This document shows positions 40,453-49,311 of a DNA stretch of 64,000 nucleotides, piece after piece (within the stretch, counting starts at the first letter, position 1; each line of letters begins with the position of its first letter). The position numbers and the translations under genes were made by a program. The stretch comes from Promethearchaeota archaeon (lineage in GTDB: Archaea; Asgardarchaeota; Lokiarchaeia; Sigyniarchaeales; SOKP01), in NCBI GenBank assembly GCA_016840085.1, contig JAEOTA010000086.1:128001-192000 (forward strand). Direction: 5' to 3'. The notes under the pieces are model-generated. The model searched no databases. It saw only the letters and a program-made list of their open reading frames with translations, and was not told where the DNA came from.

Positions 40453-41037
40453 TTAATCAGTTTTGGATCCACAATATTGACAAAATTTTAATTCTAATGG
40501 ATAATGTTTTCCGCAATTAGGGCATTTTTTTAGTGAATTCTTAAGAATTTCCCTCCCTAACATTTCAAAAGCTTTTTCTACATTTTCACCTGTTTTTGAG
40601 GATGTACCAAGCATATCTCCTTTAAATTTAAACTTTTCAAATATTTCTAAAGCATCTTCTCTTTTCACTTTTCTTTTTAAATCAATTTTAGCTTCAATTA
40701 ATATTTTTGTTTTAGGAGAATTTGGAACAGAAGAGATAACGTTTATCCAATCATAGAGATCATTTAAAGAATCTTTATTTGACACATCGTATAACATTAA
40801 AGCTCCAGACGCACCAGATACATAAGAAGGGAATAAAAGTCGGAATTTCTTTTCTCCAGCAAAATCCCAAATATTTAGAAGTATTTCTGTATCATCAACC
40901 ACTACTTTTTTCGTTTCAAAATCAACACCAATAGTTGATAATGTAGATATTTCGAATTTACCTGTTGCATACCGGCGGATTAAACTTGTCTTGCCTACAT
41001 TTTTAGCTCCAGCAACAACAACTTTAAATTTTATCAT
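40453..41037 (-). CDS. Rab-like small GTPase with C-terminal zinc ribbon
   Basis: GAKNVGKT, TIGVDF, WDFAGE, SSKTGENV, CPNC...CQYC. Confidence 0.93.
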   Translation of the reverse strand: MIKFKVVVAGAKNVGKTSLIRRYATGKFEISTLSTIGVDFETKKVVVDDTEILLNIWDFAGEKKFRLLFPSYVSGASGALMLYDVSNKDSLNDLYDWINVISSVPNSPKTKILIEAKIDLKRKVKREDALEIFEKFKFKGDMLGTSSKTGENVEKAFEMLGREILKNSLKKCPNCGKHYPLELKFCQYCGSKTD

Positions 41038-41122: not shown

Positions 41123-43432
41123 TTATTGATTTGGTTTGTACTTATATCTACTTATTTTATAAATCTCTTGAGCAATTTTTTTACCAATACTCTCAATTTT
41201 AATTAAATCAGGAATGTCTGCTAAAACTAATTTCTGTAAAGTCTTAAATTCATTCAATAAATTTTTAGCTCGAAGATTATTTACACCTGGAATTCCAGCA
41301 ACAATATATTCTAAAAGATGCGAAGTTTCAATAGGTGCTTTATCAAACCGTATAGAAATTTTATTCTTAGATTCGGACTGTTCTTTTTTTGCCAGTTGAT
41401 ATAAAAACATAGCAGTTTCTTCAGAATTCTCCGTTTTATATACACTTATGCCTAAATTTAGAATAATTGTAGTAATCGCTCCATATAGCGCATTTTCGTT
41501 AATAGTAGATTCATTAAATGGATCACCTTCTAAGATTAATATAGAGCTTTCAAACCTATTCTTTAGATCAAATAATTCATTGAATAATCTTCCATCCTTT
41601 ATTGAATCGATAAAGTCTTGAGCCGTCTTTCTTTCAATACCGACTCTATTTGAAAGCACATAATCCGCAATAGGTAATTGCTCTAATTTTAAGGTTACAC
41701 CCATTAATGAAAGTGTTCTAACAACAGACGATGCTGTCTCTCGATTATCACATATAATTTGGTACTTATTAGCGTCATCTATTTTTTGATTTAGCATTAT
41801 CCCACTTTCTTTTGTCACAAAATCTAAAAGATTTGATTGTCCTGATTTCTCTAATTGTTCCGATTGTTTTATCTTTCCTAAACTATCTCTCATATTTCTT
41901 TCTTTAACTTTTTCTGCCCAATAATATCCCTCATCCCTTGTATCTTCTGCCATTAAGATGTAAACTTTTCCCTCTTTTTTACGCCCAGTACGACCTCGGC
42001 GCTGAATTGCTCGTATAGCACTTGGCACCACATCATAAAAAACAACTAGATCACATTCTGCTATATCTAATCCTTCCTCCGCGACACTTGTTCCTATAAG
42101 AGTGTTATATATCCCTTTTTTAAATTCTTCCAGGATTCTAATTTGCTCTTTCTGAGTTAAACCTTTATCAGAACCTTTTTTAGCTTGCCCTACAAATTTG
42201 TGAGCATTTATTATCTCATCTTTCTCAAAATATCTTACAATGTTATTCACTGAGTCTCTAAAATGACAGAAGACTAATATTCTTGAATTTTTATGATCTT
42301 TAAGTTGAGACCTTAGAATTTTTTTTAATTTCTCAAGTTTGGGATGAACTATACCCTTCGATTGGATTTGATATGTTAGCTCTATTACCCGTTTGATATC
42401 ATTATCTAAAAACAATTCTTTCAAAGATTTATTAGCTAAATTATTTTTTACTTTTTCTTCATTTTTCACGATATAATCTTTTAGAGCATTAATTCCTTGA
42501 GTTTCAAGAAGTTCAAGCATATGAGAGATTCGAATAGCATTAGCCTGTAGTTTTTTAGCGTAAAACATCTCAAACTTTTCACTATCATCTCGTAAGAATG
42601 AAATCTTTCTATTAATAACTGTATTAAGCTGTAAAAGATCTTTCCTCGTTACTTTATTCACATCATAGGAATTGAGTAATTCCTTTTCTTTTAACCATTT
42701 ATAAATATTTTTTAGTTTTTCTTCTAAAATTTTTTTAATCTCTATGAATTCATTAGGAAGCTTAATTTTTATCCATTTATTATCCACATCTTGGATATAT
42801 GGTTTAACATCAACATCATTTTCAGTTCTTATTTCTACATGGTTGATAAATAAATTTTGTTTTATTTCGTTAATTTTTTCTTGAGTAGAACCCGGGCTTG
42901 CTGTTAAACCTAAAATCTGAGGAGTTATTGCACTTTCAATATATTTTTTGGCAATAAAACAATAAGCATAATCACCTATGGCTCTATGACACTCATCAAA
43001 AATGATCAAAGAGACATCTTTTATCGAATAATTTTTAGATATAATATCATTTTGTAATACTTGGGGTGTCATAAAAGCCACACGGAGTTTTTCCCATAAT
43101 ATTTTTCTTTTCACCGGTGGCGTGGTACCTGTTATTGATACTAGTTCATCAGGATTAATCTCGGTTAAACTTAAAAAAGAGTTATAATGTTGCTCTACTA
43201 AAGGTTTTGTTGGAGCTAATAAAATGACTTTAGAATCTGGTATATCAGTTAATTTTTGAACTGTTAGCATTAATGCTATAATTGTTTTCCCTAAACCTGT
43301 AGGAATAACCACTAAACAATTTTTATTTAGGCAATTTATAAAAATGTTTTCTTGATATTTCCGTCGAGAAATTAAATTACTCTTAATTAGGGGATGTGAA
43401 ATGAAATCATTTTTTATTGAGACTGAAATCAC
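41123..43432 (-). CDS. hef: Hef/FANCM-like helicase with ERCC4 nuclease
   Basis: PTGLGKT, DECH, TASPG, QRRGRTGR, DNRE...IERK, HhH. Confidence 0.95.
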   Translation of the reverse strand: MISVSIKNDFISHPLIKSNLISRRKYQENIFINCLNKNCLVVIPTGLGKTIIALMLTVQKLTDIPDSKVILLAPTKPLVEQHYNSFLSLTEINPDELVSITGTTPPVKRKILWEKLRVAFMTPQVLQNDIISKNYSIKDVSLIIFDECHRAIGDYAYCFIAKKYIESAITPQILGLTASPGSTQEKINEIKQNLFINHVEIRTENDVDVKPYIQDVDNKWIKIKLPNEFIEIKKILEEKLKNIYKWLKEKELLNSYDVNKVTRKDLLQLNTVINRKISFLRDDSEKFEMFYAKKLQANAIRISHMLELLETQGINALKDYIVKNEEKVKNNLANKSLKELFLDNDIKRVIELTYQIQSKGIVHPKLEKLKKILRSQLKDHKNSRILVFCHFRDSVNNIVRYFEKDEIINAHKFVGQAKKGSDKGLTQKEQIRILEEFKKGIYNTLIGTSVAEEGLDIAECDLVVFYDVVPSAIRAIQRRGRTGRKKEGKVYILMAEDTRDEGYYWAEKVKERNMRDSLGKIKQSEQLEKSGQSNLLDFVTKESGIMLNQKIDDANKYQIICDNRETASSVVRTLSLMGVTLKLEQLPIADYVLSNRVGIERKTAQDFIDSIKDGRLFNELFDLKNRFESSILILEGDPFNESTINENALYGAITTIILNLGISVYKTENSEETAMFLYQLAKKEQSESKNKISIRFDKAPIETSHLLEYIVAGIPGVNNLRAKNLLNEFKTLQKLVLADIPDLIKIESIGKKIAQEIYKISRYKYKPNQ

Positions 43433-43623: not shown

Positions 43624-43727
43624 GCGCGAGTGGTTTAGTGGTTATAACAACACGCTCACACCGTGTATTTCTGTGAAAATTGCTTTATAGATAACGAAGG
43701 TCGGGGGTTCAAATCCCCCCTTGCGCA
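43624..43727 (+). tRNA. tRNA-Val(CAC) with a 31-nt non-canonical intron at the anticodon-stem/variable-loop junction
   Basis: Acceptor GCGCGAG/CTTGCGC; anticodon arm ACACG-CTCACAC-CGTGT; variable loop AGGTC; T arm GGGGG-TTCAAAT-CCCCC; discriminator A; insert 43667-43697 (or 43668-43698) with hairpin TCTGTGAA/TTTATAGA. Confidence 0.92.
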
Positions 43728-43818
43728 TTTTTCAATCTTGTTAAAAATTCTTTACTCTCTATTAATTTTAAATTTAAATTAACCATTTAATTTTAAATAT
43801 CATTACTTAAAACTAAAA

Positions 43819-44673
43819 TTGAAGAAAACCTGCACTAAATGCCAGAGAACCTTGGATTTAACGCATTTTCGGATATCAAAAGGATATAATAGTAATATCT
43901 GTAGAAAATGTGAATTAAAACAAAAAAATATAAGAAATTTTCAGATTAAGTATAAGATTATTAAAAATTATTTTAATGGAAAATGCAGAGATTGTGAAAC
44001 TAATTATTTGAACCTTCCAGCTTTAGAATTTCACCATCCTGATTTGAGCAAAAAAACTACAACATGGAGGAAACTCAAAGGGCAAAGTTATTCAAATATT
44101 CTTAGCAGACTTTTATATGATAAAGTCCAACTTTTATGCAGAAATTGCCATACTTTAGCAGGAGCCACTACATTTAAATTTTATAAGGAAATTATTCTAA
44201 AATATGATTTTCCTTTAAATGATATTAATAAAAACAATATTCTTGATTCAATAAATAATGAGTTACATCAGTTCCATTTAGATGAGAAATTCAATAACAA
44301 AACTAAATATCACATTTTAAAATGGATTAAGAAAAAATCATTAATTGAACTACTCTATAAGGGTAGTTGTGTTGGGTGTGAAAAAACCAATATTGAAAAC
44401 AATCTACCCGCTTTAATTTTTCATCATTTAGATCAGTTTAAAAAAGATAAAATCTCAAGATGGCAAAAAATCTCAAATTTGAGCATACAAGAAATTATAA
44501 ATTTATTAAAAAAAGAAAAATGTGTTTGTCTATGTGCTAATTGTCATAAATTTATTGAATCAATACAATTTTTAGAACAACAAAACTTAATTATAGGTGA
44601 AAGGAATGCTTTAGAAGTGAAAAGAACGTTTAATCTAATTATCTCAAGAATAGAAAATTTTAATATAATTTAG
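43819..44673 (+). CDS. Tandem HNH-like endonuclease with N-terminal zinc finger
   Basis: CTKC...CRKC, then two copies of CxxC...LPALxFHH...LCxNCH. Confidence 0.85.
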   Translation: MKKTCTKCQRTLDLTHFRISKGYNSNICRKCELKQKNIRNFQIKYKIIKNYFNGKCRDCETNYLNLPALEFHHPDLSKKTTTWRKLKGQSYSNILSRLLYDKVQLLCRNCHTLAGATTFKFYKEIILKYDFPLNDINKNNILDSINNELHQFHLDEKFNNKTKYHILKWIKKKSLIELLYKGSCVGCEKTNIENNLPALIFHHLDQFKKDKISRWQKISNLSIQEIINLLKKEKCVCLCANCHKFIESIQFLEQQNLIIGERNALEVKRTFNLIISRIENFNII

Positions 44674-44676
44674 ACA

Positions 44677-44730
44677 GGGGTTCAAAATTCTGAAAATCTA
44701 TTTTGGTGTGAATTGTTCCCTCCTCGCGCA
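44677..44730 (+). pseudogene. Orphan tRNA-Val 3' fragment (T arm plus acceptor strand) with a 30-nt insert in the T loop
   Basis: CTCGCGC-A is perfectly complementary to the tRNA 5' GCGCGAG; GGGG/CCCT T-stem; the insert region has AATTC/GAATT complementarity. Confidence 0.7.
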
Positions 44731-44803
44731 TTTACTTTATTGCCTTTAAAAATCGAAAAAGTTATATGATATTTTGCATTTTTTAAATCTAATTACTGAT
44801 TTT

Positions 44804-45121
44804 ATGGTTAATTCAACCATGTCTAGTTTCTTAGAATCTCGAGAATTACGTAAACTCTATAAGAAAGTAAGAAAAAATATTAAAATTGGATCAATTTTTT
44901 TAACTAGATACGAGAAAGCAAGGATTGTAGGGGCCAGAGCTCTACAAATATCATTTGGGGCTCCAATCTTAGTGGAAAAACCAGTAGATATGATAGATCC
45001 TATTAAAATTGCTCAATTAGAATTAAAATCAAAAATCTTACCTTTAACTATTAGACGAGAAAATCCCAGTGGAGAATACCAAGATATCCCAATAAATAAA
45101 CTAATTTTAAAAAAAGATTAG
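44804..45121 (+). CDS. rpoK: RNA polymerase subunit Rpo6/K
   Basis: LTRYEKARIVGARALQISFGAP, LPLTIRR; start at 44804 or 44819. Confidence 0.95.
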   Translation: MVNSTMSSFLESRELRKLYKKVRKNIKIGSIFLTRYEKARIVGARALQISFGAPILVEKPVDMIDPIKIAQLELKSKILPLTIRRENPSGEYQDIPINKLILKKD

Positions 45122-46193: not shown

Positions 46194-47636
46194 CTAAGGG
46201 AACCTAAACCTCTTTTTATATTGATCCCAACTCTTCTTATCTAAAGGATTTTCGTTCAAAAATAGAAAATTCAAATTAGTCAAACTTCTAATACTTTCAT
46301 TTCTAAATTTTGATAAATTATTTCTCCCAATATGAAATATAATTAAATTCTTTAAACCGTCAAAGCCTTCCAGTTCTTCTATGTTGTTGCCATCTAAATA
46401 CAGTTCTTGCAATTCACCTAAAGTATCTAACCCTTCTAATTTTTTAATTCTGTTATTAGACAGTTCTAACTTCTTTAAATTTGTCAAATTGTCAAGAAAT
46501 TCAATTTTTACTATGCAATTATTTGAAAGATATAATCCCTTTAATTTATCACACATCTCCAATCCTTCAATTTGAGAAAGTCTATTATCATTAAAATATA
46601 ACCAAAATAAATTATTTAGTTCTACAAGCCCCCTTATCTTTTCTATGTGGTTGAATGAAAGGTTTAACCTTTTTAAATTCACGAGTGCTTCTAAATTCCT
46701 TATAATTTTTATCAAATTATGACTTAGGTTTAAATCCTCTAACGATACTAAAGAATTCAAATTATCAATTTCTTTTATTAGATTATTATTTAAAGAGAGT
46801 TTTTTTAACTTATTCAAAGATTCTAAGTTTTCTATTATTCTAATTTTGTTATTTGATAAACCTAAGACTTCTAAATCACCTAAATTATTTAGATTCTCTA
46901 TCTTTTCTATTTTATTATTAGATAAATCTAAAGTTTTTAAATTATTTAAAAGATGCAAATTAAGACAACTCGTAAGACTATTTCTTTGCATTACAAGATG
47001 TTCTAAATTACATAGATTACTTAGCCCCTTAATCTCTTTTAGATTCTTTATATTTGAACTCTCACAATTTAATGATATTATCTTTCCTTTTCGTATAGTA
47101 ACAAGAAACCCACATTCATTTTTATAATAATCACTTAAGATTAAATTAATGCAAATCTCAAGAATATTGTCAGGAATAGCATTATTACAATTATAACTAA
47201 AGATCTCTTCAGGAAACTGTTTAACCTTATCTTTAAACCTTTTTTTTATGAAATCTTTCAGGTATTCTATTATAATTCTTCGAGTTTTAAAATTATCAAT
47301 TGAGTTTAAAGTGTGTATTGCATAAATTTTCTGGTCTATATTAATAATTTTTTTTAATGTGTATTCTAAAAGAGGTATAAGCTTTTTATAATCTGAATAT
47401 TTATCCCTTAAAATATTTCCAGCAACTAATTTAATATGGGGATCCTCATCTGAGAGGAATAGCTGTTCTAAAAATTTAAAGTTTTTACAATTATCAATTG
47501 TTCCATAAATTTTTAGTGACTTTTTTCTTATCTTAGGATCATTTGAACCATCAATAAGCTCTCTTAAAAGAGCCAAGCCCTCTTTTGTTCCAATTTGTTT
47601 TAAATTTTCTTTTATATAATCGGGATTAGATAACAT
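46194..47636 (-). CDS. HEAT-like plus Sds22-type leucine-rich repeat protein
   Basis: Roughly a dozen 22-aa repeats LxxLxLxxNxIxxIxxL. Confidence 0.92.
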   Translation of the reverse strand: MLSNPDYIKENLKQIGTKEGLALLRELIDGSNDPKIRKKSLKIYGTIDNCKNFKFLEQLFLSDEDPHIKLVAGNILRDKYSDYKKLIPLLEYTLKKIINIDQKIYAIHTLNSIDNFKTRRIIIEYLKDFIKKRFKDKVKQFPEEIFSYNCNNAIPDNILEICINLILSDYYKNECGFLVTIRKGKIISLNCESSNIKNLKEIKGLSNLCNLEHLVMQRNSLTSCLNLHLLNNLKTLDLSNNKIEKIENLNNLGDLEVLGLSNNKIRIIENLESLNKLKKLSLNNNLIKEIDNLNSLVSLEDLNLSHNLIKIIRNLEALVNLKRLNLSFNHIEKIRGLVELNNLFWLYFNDNRLSQIEGLEMCDKLKGLYLSNNCIVKIEFLDNLTNLKKLELSNNRIKKLEGLDTLGELQELYLDGNNIEELEGFDGLKNLIIFHIGRNNLSKFRNESIRSLTNLNFLFLNENPLDKKSWDQYKKRFRFP

Positions 47637-48165
47637 TTGAGCGGAACTAGTTTTAAATCCTAAAAAATTGATAAAAATTTAATATTAAATTCAATACTAT
47701 TAATTTGTAAATTAATACAAATGTCTATACATAAAAAATAATTCAATTCAATTAAATATCTCCAACACATTTAATCCTTCAGTTTTAGTTCTTAAAAATC
47801 CCTTTTTTTATAACAATCTTTTACAAATTCTAAATTTTTGATAATAATTTGTTATCAAACCATTATCAAATGGAATTAAATGATATCTCTGATGGACTTA
47901 TTTGCAAATCCGAAATAATTAGAAATTTTAATTTCGTTTATATATTGCTTATGTAAACAATACATTTTCTTTAAGGTTTAAAAAAATTTATAAATACATA
48001 ATTTATTAGATTATTAAATTTTGTATTTTACACATTAATTGTACCTTAAAAATACAATTTTTTGATAAAACATAAAAATTAAAATTACCACATGTAATAT
48101 AAAATATACATCTAAAAATAAAATCCAAATAAATCAAAATTAAAAATATAGGCTGATAATAAAAT

Positions 48166-49311
48166 ATGGCAGAAGAAGAAAGCTTTCTGAATGCAAAAGC
48201 ATTAGTAGTAGACAATGGTACAGGTATCTCAAAAAATGGTTTTGCCGGAGAAGATCAACCTCGTTCTGTCTTTCCCACTCTTATTGGTTATCCTAAATAT
48301 GAATCTATCATGACAGATGTTGAGCATTATACACGGGAATACTATATTGGGGAAGAAGCCATGCAGCTTAAAGGTGTTCTAAAACTCATGTTCCCTGTTG
48401 AACATGGTATTATTGAAGATTGGACTGCCATGGAGAAAATCTGGCACTATACATTCTATACGGATCTAAGAATCGATCCAAGCGAACATCCAGTACTTTT
48501 AACAGAAGCGCCATTAAATCCACGGCCCAACCGTGAAAAAATGGCCGAAATTATGTTTGAGACCTTTAATACTCCTGCTCTTTATGTCGCAATGCAGGCA
48601 GTTTTATCTCTCTATGCTTCTGGTCGTACTACGGGGTGTGTTATAGATATTGGTGATGGAGTATCCCACGTTGTACCAATCTTCGAAGGATTCGCCTTAA
48701 GTCATGCTATTCAGAGAATTGATCTTGCGGGTAGAGACATAACCACTTATTTACAACGATTACTCAGACAAAAAGGATATTCTTTTACAACATCAGCTGA
48801 AAAGCAAATTGTGAGAGATATAAAGGAGAAACTATGCTACGTCGCAATTGATCCCGAGAAAGAGATGATGTTGAGTAAGAAAGTTGCTGGAATGGAAAAA
48901 AGCTACATGCTACCTGATGGTGAAACCATCAATGTTGGTGTAGAAAGATTTTTAGCTCCTGAATGCTTTTTTAATCCATCAGTAATCGGGAAAGAGCTTG
49001 AACCCTTAGATGACGTAATAGTTGGTTCCATTTCCGAGTGTGATGTTGATCTCCGCCGAGATCTTTATAGCAACATCGTTTTATCTGGCGGGAGCACTAT
49101 GTTCCCTGGTATAAAGGAACGGTTAACGAAAGAGATAAAAGAGCAAATCCCGGAGAGCGTCGATGTTAAAATAATTGCTCCACCTGAGCGTATGTATTCA
49201 GTCTGGATCGGTGGATCAATTTTAAGCTCACTTAAAACATTCCATCGTATGTGGGTCACCAGACGAGAATATAAAGAGATGGGTCCCCAAGTTATTCACA
49301 GATGCTTTTAA
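48166..49311 (+). CDS. Actin (lokiactin)
   Basis: [62 protein letters not shown]-terminal HRCF. Confidence 0.98.

Follow-up and report, generated by a model that had tools for sequence, protein, structure and literature searches.

Organization of the tRNA-Val(CAC) Locus

The window (the whole stretch of DNA that was analyzed, 64,000 nucleotides) belongs to a Lokiarchaeia-type Asgard genome. It carries, in this order, a hef gene on the minus strand, a tRNA-Val(CAC) gene, an open reading frame for a 284-aa protein, an orphan tRNA 3' piece and rpoK:

41123-43432, minus strand: Hef/XPF helicase-nuclease, the left synteny marker (Pfam DEAD, Helicase_C, ERCC4)
43624-43727, plus strand: hybrid, functional tRNA-Val(CAC), mature length 73 nt (Rfam RF00005, 58.7 bits; genome scans; splice reconstruction)
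43668-43698, plus strand: 31-nt intron at 44/45 with a relaxed bulge-helix-bulge (BHB), central helix 3/4 (splice reconstruction)
43699-43727, plus strand: new, intron-free 3' exon, positions 45-73, now used (five haplotypes identical except at position 57)
43728-43818, plus strand: T-tract and AT-rich spacer (strain comparison)
43819-44673, plus strand: predicted HNH endonuclease, 284 aa (phrog_2255, alignment, structure model)
44671-44730, plus strand: displaced original tRNA-Val 3' part (positions 43-73), almost certainly a relic (51/54 nt identical to L105; strain series)
44686-44715, plus strand: 30-nt T-loop intron at 58/59 with a complete predicted BHB, central helix 4/4 and inner helix 8/9 (splice reconstruction; relatives)
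44731-44760, plus strand: native downstream flank of the tRNA-Val gene, adjoining the orphan (matches the flanks of the empty alleles L105 and L310 and of the resolved allele L108)
44819-45121, plus strand: rpoK/Rpo6, the right synteny marker (PF01192)

Once the 31-nt intron is removed, the gene at 43624-43727 splices to 73 nt; it was the sole Val(CAC) gene found, and genome scans turned up no second one. The new 3' exon has a G-U pair at 5-68, a pair that is Watson-Crick in the orphan, and two independent deletions of the HNH gene begin ~20 nt into the spacer. Introns were located with a custom detector, since ARAGORN misses or misplaces the introns of such tRNAs. An assembly artefact is excluded, because two Logan contigs (L151 and L152, possibly the source sample itself) are identical to the window across the locus and further assemblies (L146, L276 and L305) share its layout. 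DNA contigs of related strains were found, none of which covers the whole stretch. Elsewhere on the window lie a Rab-like GTPase gene (40453-41037, minus strand) whose product has a WDFAGE motif and a C-terminal CxxC-x10-CxxC ribbon and, at 46194-49311, an actin gene divergent from a gene for an LRR protein.

The Orphan 3' Piece and Its T-loop Intron

The preliminary description of this DNA had recognized a tRNA 3' piece without a gene of its own, in which removal of 30 nt restores a T arm and an acceptor strand, and this proved correct. Allowing 0-1 mismatch, the 4.68-Mb genome contains just one copy of the 14-mer made up of T stem and acceptor strand, and the piece is identical at 51 of 54 nt to the 3' part of an intact tRNA-Val gene in a close relative (L105), so a chance resemblance can be set aside. 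The piece is indeed present at 44677-44730, as first described, but its true start is 44671, the TAG stop codon of the HNH gene being tRNA positions 43-45; strains L276 and L277 retain TAGGTCGGGG at the tRNA positions where the window has the HNH stop.

The insert had also rightly been likened to an archaeal intron, but in the wrong register (44687-44716, that is 59/60), and it had been said that no clean BHB could be drawn. In the correct register (44686-44715, 58/59) a complete BHB is obtained: the mature loop reads UUCAAUU, the central helix GUUC/GAAU forms 4/4 pairs (G53-C56 with the intron), each bulge measures 3 nt, and there are at least 3 pairs in the outer helix and 8 of 9 in the inner one, whereas the 59/60 register gives a central helix of 0/4. 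Among the T-loop introns compared, 24 of 32 reach a central helix of 4/4 at 58/59 and 1 of 32 does so at 59/60; pairing in the inner helix reaches 82%, compared with 29-57% in slid controls, and the helices carry compensatory C-G/U-A changes across the family.

A search of relatives for T-loop introns in tRNA-Val, as had been suggested, found a homologous 30-nt intron in 26 distinct intact alleles, which sit at the hef-rpoK locus or a rearranged form of it. The intron of the window orphan matches that of L105 at 26/30 nt and that of L310 at 28/30 nt. Other tRNAs of the window genome also have T-loop introns by the custom detector, so this position is normal for the organism. The 30-nt insert is thus a predicted BHB intron at 58/59; that reading was to have been given up if no relative had a T-loop intron here and the insert was not cleaved by the splicing endonuclease, and it stands because a BHB forms at 58/59 and intact genes of relatives carry the intron. 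Unrelated T-loop introns that fit 59/60 and not 58/59 were seen in the tRNA-Val genes of L010, L110, L063 and L140. Two tRNA-Ala(UGC) genes of the window genome, G000 (C83:212-313 and C85:34167-34299), share their exons but differ in their introns.

Empty, Occupied, Decaying and Resolved Alleles

Four related alleles (L105, L302, L303 and L310) are "empty": each has a single tRNA-Val gene, the 3' part and downstream flank of which correspond to the orphan and the sequence that follows it, and the hef and rpoK genes of L105 are 93-94% identical in nucleotides to those of the window. This match identifies the orphan as the old 3' end, still at its native site, and the 3' end now in use as the newcomer.

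The insert or its remnant is present in six haplotypes (the window, L276, L305, L146, L277 and G024), which together form a series. The HNH gene is intact in the window and in L276; it is broken by a nonsense codon and a frameshift in L305, by a frameshift in L146, and by a 576-nt deletion in L277 (a short contig that could be chimeric). A deletion of ~880 nt in G024 has left a 22-nt remnant with a 15-nt exact match, a match reached in 6 of 2000 random windows. Finally, in L108 the new end is joined straight to the native flank and the gene is intron-free and fully resolved; this layout is as expected after deletion between the new and old ends. Trees resolve the branching order of the closest strains poorly.

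The orphan decays along with the nuclease gene, with G49A, T47A and one deletion in the window, G53T in L146, T60A in L276, G53A, C56T and C66A in L277, and acceptor-strand changes in G024. These lesions differ from haplotype to haplotype, while the used 3' exon varies solely at position 57. Since they hit conserved tRNA positions and are different in each haplotype, the orphan at 44671-44730 is almost certainly a relic of the original tRNA-Val 3' part. By comparison of the alleles, the resident gene is shown to have ended in the 58/59 intron and the acceptor strand of the orphan; ~1 kb that comprises a replacement 3' part for tRNA-Val and a single HNH gene now separates the resident 5' part from its old end. 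The same comparison shows that the orphan and HNH gene decay afterwards and that deletion can yield a clean intron-free gene.

A minor alternative raised in the preliminary description was that the orphan remains functional, serving as an alternative or trans-spliced 3' half, so that 43713-44715 (1,003 nt, including the HNH gene) would be removed as one intron. In its favor, the orphan could pair with the first T arm through a 4/4 central helix and an outer helix, the window still has positions 59-73 intact, and T-loop introns occur in other tRNAs of the genome. The inner helix, however, pairs at only 3 of 9 positions with its first pair mismatched, and a T-tract follows the upstream gene, which is itself complete. 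Moreover, L276, L277 and G024 have mutations in the orphan 3' exon, L108 lacks that exon altogether, and the genome holds no second 5' half: its one 5' end lies in a complete gene. As for a split tRNA, the would-be leader and trailer form 3 of 9 pairs and the lesions differ in five haplotypes. Given the strain-specific decay, the poor inner helix and the lack of another 5' half, we consider this alternative very unlikely.

A second, independent 3'-end replacement at tRNA-Val(CAC) was seen in G025 (L003, 1361-1530 region, minus strand), where a new intron-free 3' end is followed after 9 nt by a decayed copy of an intron-bearing end, with no HNH gene. The cassette locus of the window could likewise be read as a local event independent of the nuclease: an intron-free 3' end of foreign origin would have entered by recombination, or been duplicated, before an HNH gene inserted between the two ends. 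L106, which lost the T-loop intron and shows several T-arm changes with no trace of an element, fits the same reading. All six orphan haplotypes, however, have the HNH gene or a remnant of it, and the same pairing of orphan and HNH gene recurs at other tRNAs; the near-complete erasure of the HNH gene in G024 means that G025 may itself be a later stage. We therefore hold an HNH-independent origin to be improbable. Sister lineages (L106 versus L004; L009, L082 and L088 versus L005) differ in their whole tRNA-Val intron set without a visible element, which implies frequent allele swaps at this locus. A separate rearrangement is found in L124, L125 and L136 (G120, G121 and G151), where the tRNA-Val(CAC) gene is inverted relative to hef and rpoK.

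Intron Loss or Intron Swap

The preliminary description proposed that the ancestral tRNA-Val had two non-canonical introns, one of which was lost through replacement of the 3' end. The loss of the T-loop intron by this route holds, because intact genes of relatives carry the intron and the resolved gene of L108 lies intron-free on the native flank. The ancestral intron set proposed there is probably wrong where the displaced allele is concerned. In the nearest empty alleles (L105, L302, L303 and L310) an anticodon-loop intron and the 58/59 intron are present and a 44/45 intron is lacking; both empty haplotypes of the clade thus pair an anticodon-loop with a T-loop intron, and L310 and the L146 orphan have identical T-loop introns. 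The orphans of L276 and L277, which start at positions 41-43, lack a 44/45 intron.

The 31-nt 44/45 intron of the used gene is unlike the 32-nt 44/45 family of other relatives. Among 400 genomes it was found in G000 and G024 only, and its other occurrences are in strains with the new 3' end, so it probably arrived with the cassette. With empty alleles that lack a 44/45 intron, and the 31-nt intron seen solely together with the new end, a swap of introns (two out and one in) is a likelier account of the event than a simple loss, and we favor it with reasonable confidence. The new 3' exon is also present in other genera, and the 31-nt intron was not found outside the clade. No donor allele was found in viral contigs, genome contigs, 154 genomes or 400 genomes.

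The HNH Protein and Its Family

The 284-aa protein combines an N-terminal CxxC-CxxC finger with two CxxC..FHH..LCxNCH (HNH) repeats. It matches the PHROG family phrog_2255 (HNH, E=5e-19), alignment places the catalytic motifs FHH and CxNCH in both repeats, and the structure model (pLDDT 88.7) has a beta-beta-alpha order in each. Pfam returned zero matches for the protein, and fold searches of the model against solved structures gave weak matches, none significant.

Homologs occur in 58 of 135 family genomes, and they keep company with tRNA genes: a tRNA lies within 300 nt of the HNH gene at 33 of 60 Lokiarchaeia-family loci (a lower bound, as the custom detector misses tRNA-His and four His loci were seen by eye), against 18 of 2162 long ORFs (0.8%) in G000. 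The loci are related and the counts non-independent, amounting to about eight independent tRNA associations. The protein clades follow tRNA isotype (Pro, Gln, Glu, Asn, Arg, His and Val). About 40% of the family loci have no tRNA nearby, and many of these are long fusions. Distant viral homologs (L212-L275) have a tRNA within 600 nt at 58 of 64 loci, with several matches overlapping the tRNA, and a flanking tRNA fragment of at least 14 nt at one locus only.

Pro(GGG), Arg(UCG) and Gln genes likewise have orphan 3' pieces on the far side of the HNH gene (in G100, G086, G108, G008, G132 and G032), and three of these orphan-flanked cassettes contain the HNH gene alone, just as the window cassette is a single ORF. 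In G100 (L155, 1672-4976), where three unknown genes accompany the HNH gene, a 30-nt T-loop intron survives in the orphan tRNA-Pro 3' piece and is missing from the used tRNA-Pro; on this comparison G100 is a second case of T-loop intron loss. Downstream of tRNA-Pro(GGG) in G086 (L156, 3929-8178) are three stacked 3' pieces that delimit small cassettes carrying two HNH genes, an unknown 231-aa protein and a PNPOx-like gene, and the stretch looks like a cassette array; its second and third orphan-flanked cassettes have no HNH gene. Depending on the locus, the orphan starts anywhere from about position 26 to 62, and no single junction rule covers all cases. A general rule by which the orphan starts at the intron position of the used gene was tried and rejected; it fits Val and one Pro case and fails elsewhere. 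No integrase was found in the 60 family loci (with one query) or among nine cassette proteins.

There are also signs that the genes may travel. Between G111 and G008, which belong to different genera, the synonymous difference is 0.34 for the HNH gene versus 0.69-0.77 in the flanks; identity is 84-93% across the HNH gene and its intron-bearing tRNA and 65-75% across the neighboring genes, apart from one segment at 81%. The tRNA-Pro D-arm introns of L173 (G111) and L177 (G008), beside sister HNH genes, are identical at 30/32 nt over the matched stretch, and it is likely that a D-arm intron and the HNH gene were transferred together. A D-arm intron is present in all seven matched HNH-adjacent Pro(GGG) genes and also in ~6/10 of all Pro(GGG) genes, which makes the association weak. 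At L277, the short and possibly chimeric contig, the HNH synonymous difference is 0.14 versus 0.41 and 0.80.

Proposed Mechanism

We suggest that the cassette arose by homing-type repair of a break made by the HNH protein, and put the probability of this at roughly 0.65. The protein would cut the resident allele near positions 41-45. The left break end would then be repaired by copying a donor tRNA-Val allele together with its HNH gene, and the right break end would be joined without long homology, which would strand the old 3' part. The conversion tract would also, quite probably, have removed the anticodon-loop intron and brought the 44/45 intron. Once formed, the cassette could spread by ordinary homing, with the orphan and its flank serving as right-hand homology. 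That the 44/45 intron may protect the occupied allele is attractive and fits some loci only; the 11-mer of the empty site is absent from G000, consistent with a spared occupied allele and no more.

Several observations weigh against a mechanism driven by the nuclease. The search for a donor was negative, the orphan starts follow no single rule, orphan-flanked cassettes without an HNH gene exist in G086, and the end replaced in G025 has no HNH gene beside it. In addition, the ~40% of family loci without a tRNA have to be accommodated, the loci are related, and the tree of the closest strains is poorly resolved.

The layout could also come from a Campbell-type integration, in which a circle with tRNA positions 41-73 and the HNH gene as cargo crossed over within the 12-bp block 45-56 of a host allele with two introns (44/45 and 58/59); such a circle would either be a minimal element relying on an integrase supplied in trans or what remains of a larger, eroded one. 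The two-intron history of the preliminary description corresponds to this reading. The layout fits a crossover in 45-56 exactly, L276 has a 12-bp direct repeat at 45-56, and many members of the genus have both introns. The three stacked tRNA-Pro ends of G086 with their non-nuclease cargo point the same way, as do an intact tyrosine recombinase gene elsewhere in the genome and the known targeting of tRNA genes by archaeal elements (PMC3293823). Set against this, no integrase was detected in any cassette, and no allele was found that joins the 31-nt 44/45 intron to a T-loop intron; the clade's two empty haplotypes have an anticodon-loop intron instead. A crossover with such a host would keep the anticodon-loop intron in one product, and neither product has one. 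Passive cargo would also leave the linkage between HNH clade and tRNA isotype unexplained. We consider this integration unlikely and retain HNH-driven break repair as the working explanation.

Comparison With Known Systems

The closest parallels are the mobile ORFs (mORFs) that make gene hybrids in fungal mitochondria, at atp6 of Allomyces macrogynus and at atp6, atp9, cox2 and nad3 of Glomus (PMC3630166). There too a foreign 3' part and an endonuclease ORF are inserted and the native 3' part, matching close relatives, lies ~1 kb downstream; the window likewise has an inserted 3' part, an ORF for a predicted endonuclease and a displaced native 3' part that matches relatives. Unlike the fungal hybrids, the gene here is a tRNA gene on an archaeal chromosome, the predicted nuclease is a tandem HNH protein (mORFs encode LAGLIDADG or GIY-YIG enzymes), and the intron set has changed. 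As in homing-endonuclease systems generally, occupied and empty alleles of one site occur together with decay.

The SegB nuclease of phages T4 and T6 is similar in that its gene has no intron or integrase and is enriched beside tRNA genes of many isotypes (PMC2988022, PMC13096335). It differs in being a phage GIY-YIG enzyme that cuts intergenic tRNA regions, and the portions of these accounts available to us do not describe a replaced tRNA end or an exchange of introns (PMC2988022, PMC13096335). Collaborative homing, the pairing of a free-standing endonuclease with an ORF-less intron, offers another likeness, as the 44/45 intron lies at the orphan start and could protect the occupied allele (PMC2988022). 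Such homing is described from group I introns of phages (PMC2988022), while the intron here is a protein-spliced BHB intron whose protective role would be a matter of conjecture.

Among archaea, the tRNA-Thr(GGU) locus of Caldiarchaeum subterraneum has a tRNA fragment and a full gene around a 1.8-kb insert, with a change in intron number (PMC3293823). In that case the fragment is a 5' one, the insert carries a recombinase gene, an intron was gained and a single locus is concerned (PMC3293823); in the present case the fragment comes from the 3' end, members of the nuclease family occur at about eight tRNAs, and the decay series is complete. The split tRNAs of Nanoarchaeum and Caldivirga also place a tRNA 3' piece beside a BHB-like motif (PMC4090602). 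Unlike these, the orphan has no separate 5' half and no complementary leader and trailer, and it is not conserved.

Significance for tRNA Intron Turnover

A 2026 preprint, whose focal classes are other Asgard lineages, reports that Asgard tRNA introns are continually gained and turned over and that copying, mobile elements and reverse transcription give no general route, and that the route is the central open problem (10.64898/2026.10.13.758758). Within incomplete coverage of the literature, no published account was found of an exchange of archaeal tRNA introns by an HNH cassette. The mORF-type layout was known before from fungal mitochondria; what appears new is its presence at an archaeal tRNA gene together with a probable intron exchange.

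More broadly, it is possible, though on balance doubtful, that tRNA-targeting HNH cassettes drive the turnover of tRNA introns in Lokiarchaeia by collaborative homing: the nuclease would cut an intron-less target, the BHB intron traveling with it would protect the occupied allele, repair would move introns across species and genera, and the nuclease would then decay without trace. The absence of any mobile-element trace from the resolved allele would account for negative neighborhood tests. The locus also bears on the idea that introns shield tRNA genes (PMC3293823, PMC4090602), since the T-loop intron of the resident allele failed to block the invasion. With empty, occupied, decaying and resolved alleles among close strains, the hef-rpoK locus catches one route of intron turnover underway, and invasion by such cassettes is one way in which these archaea lose tRNA introns and probably gain them as well.
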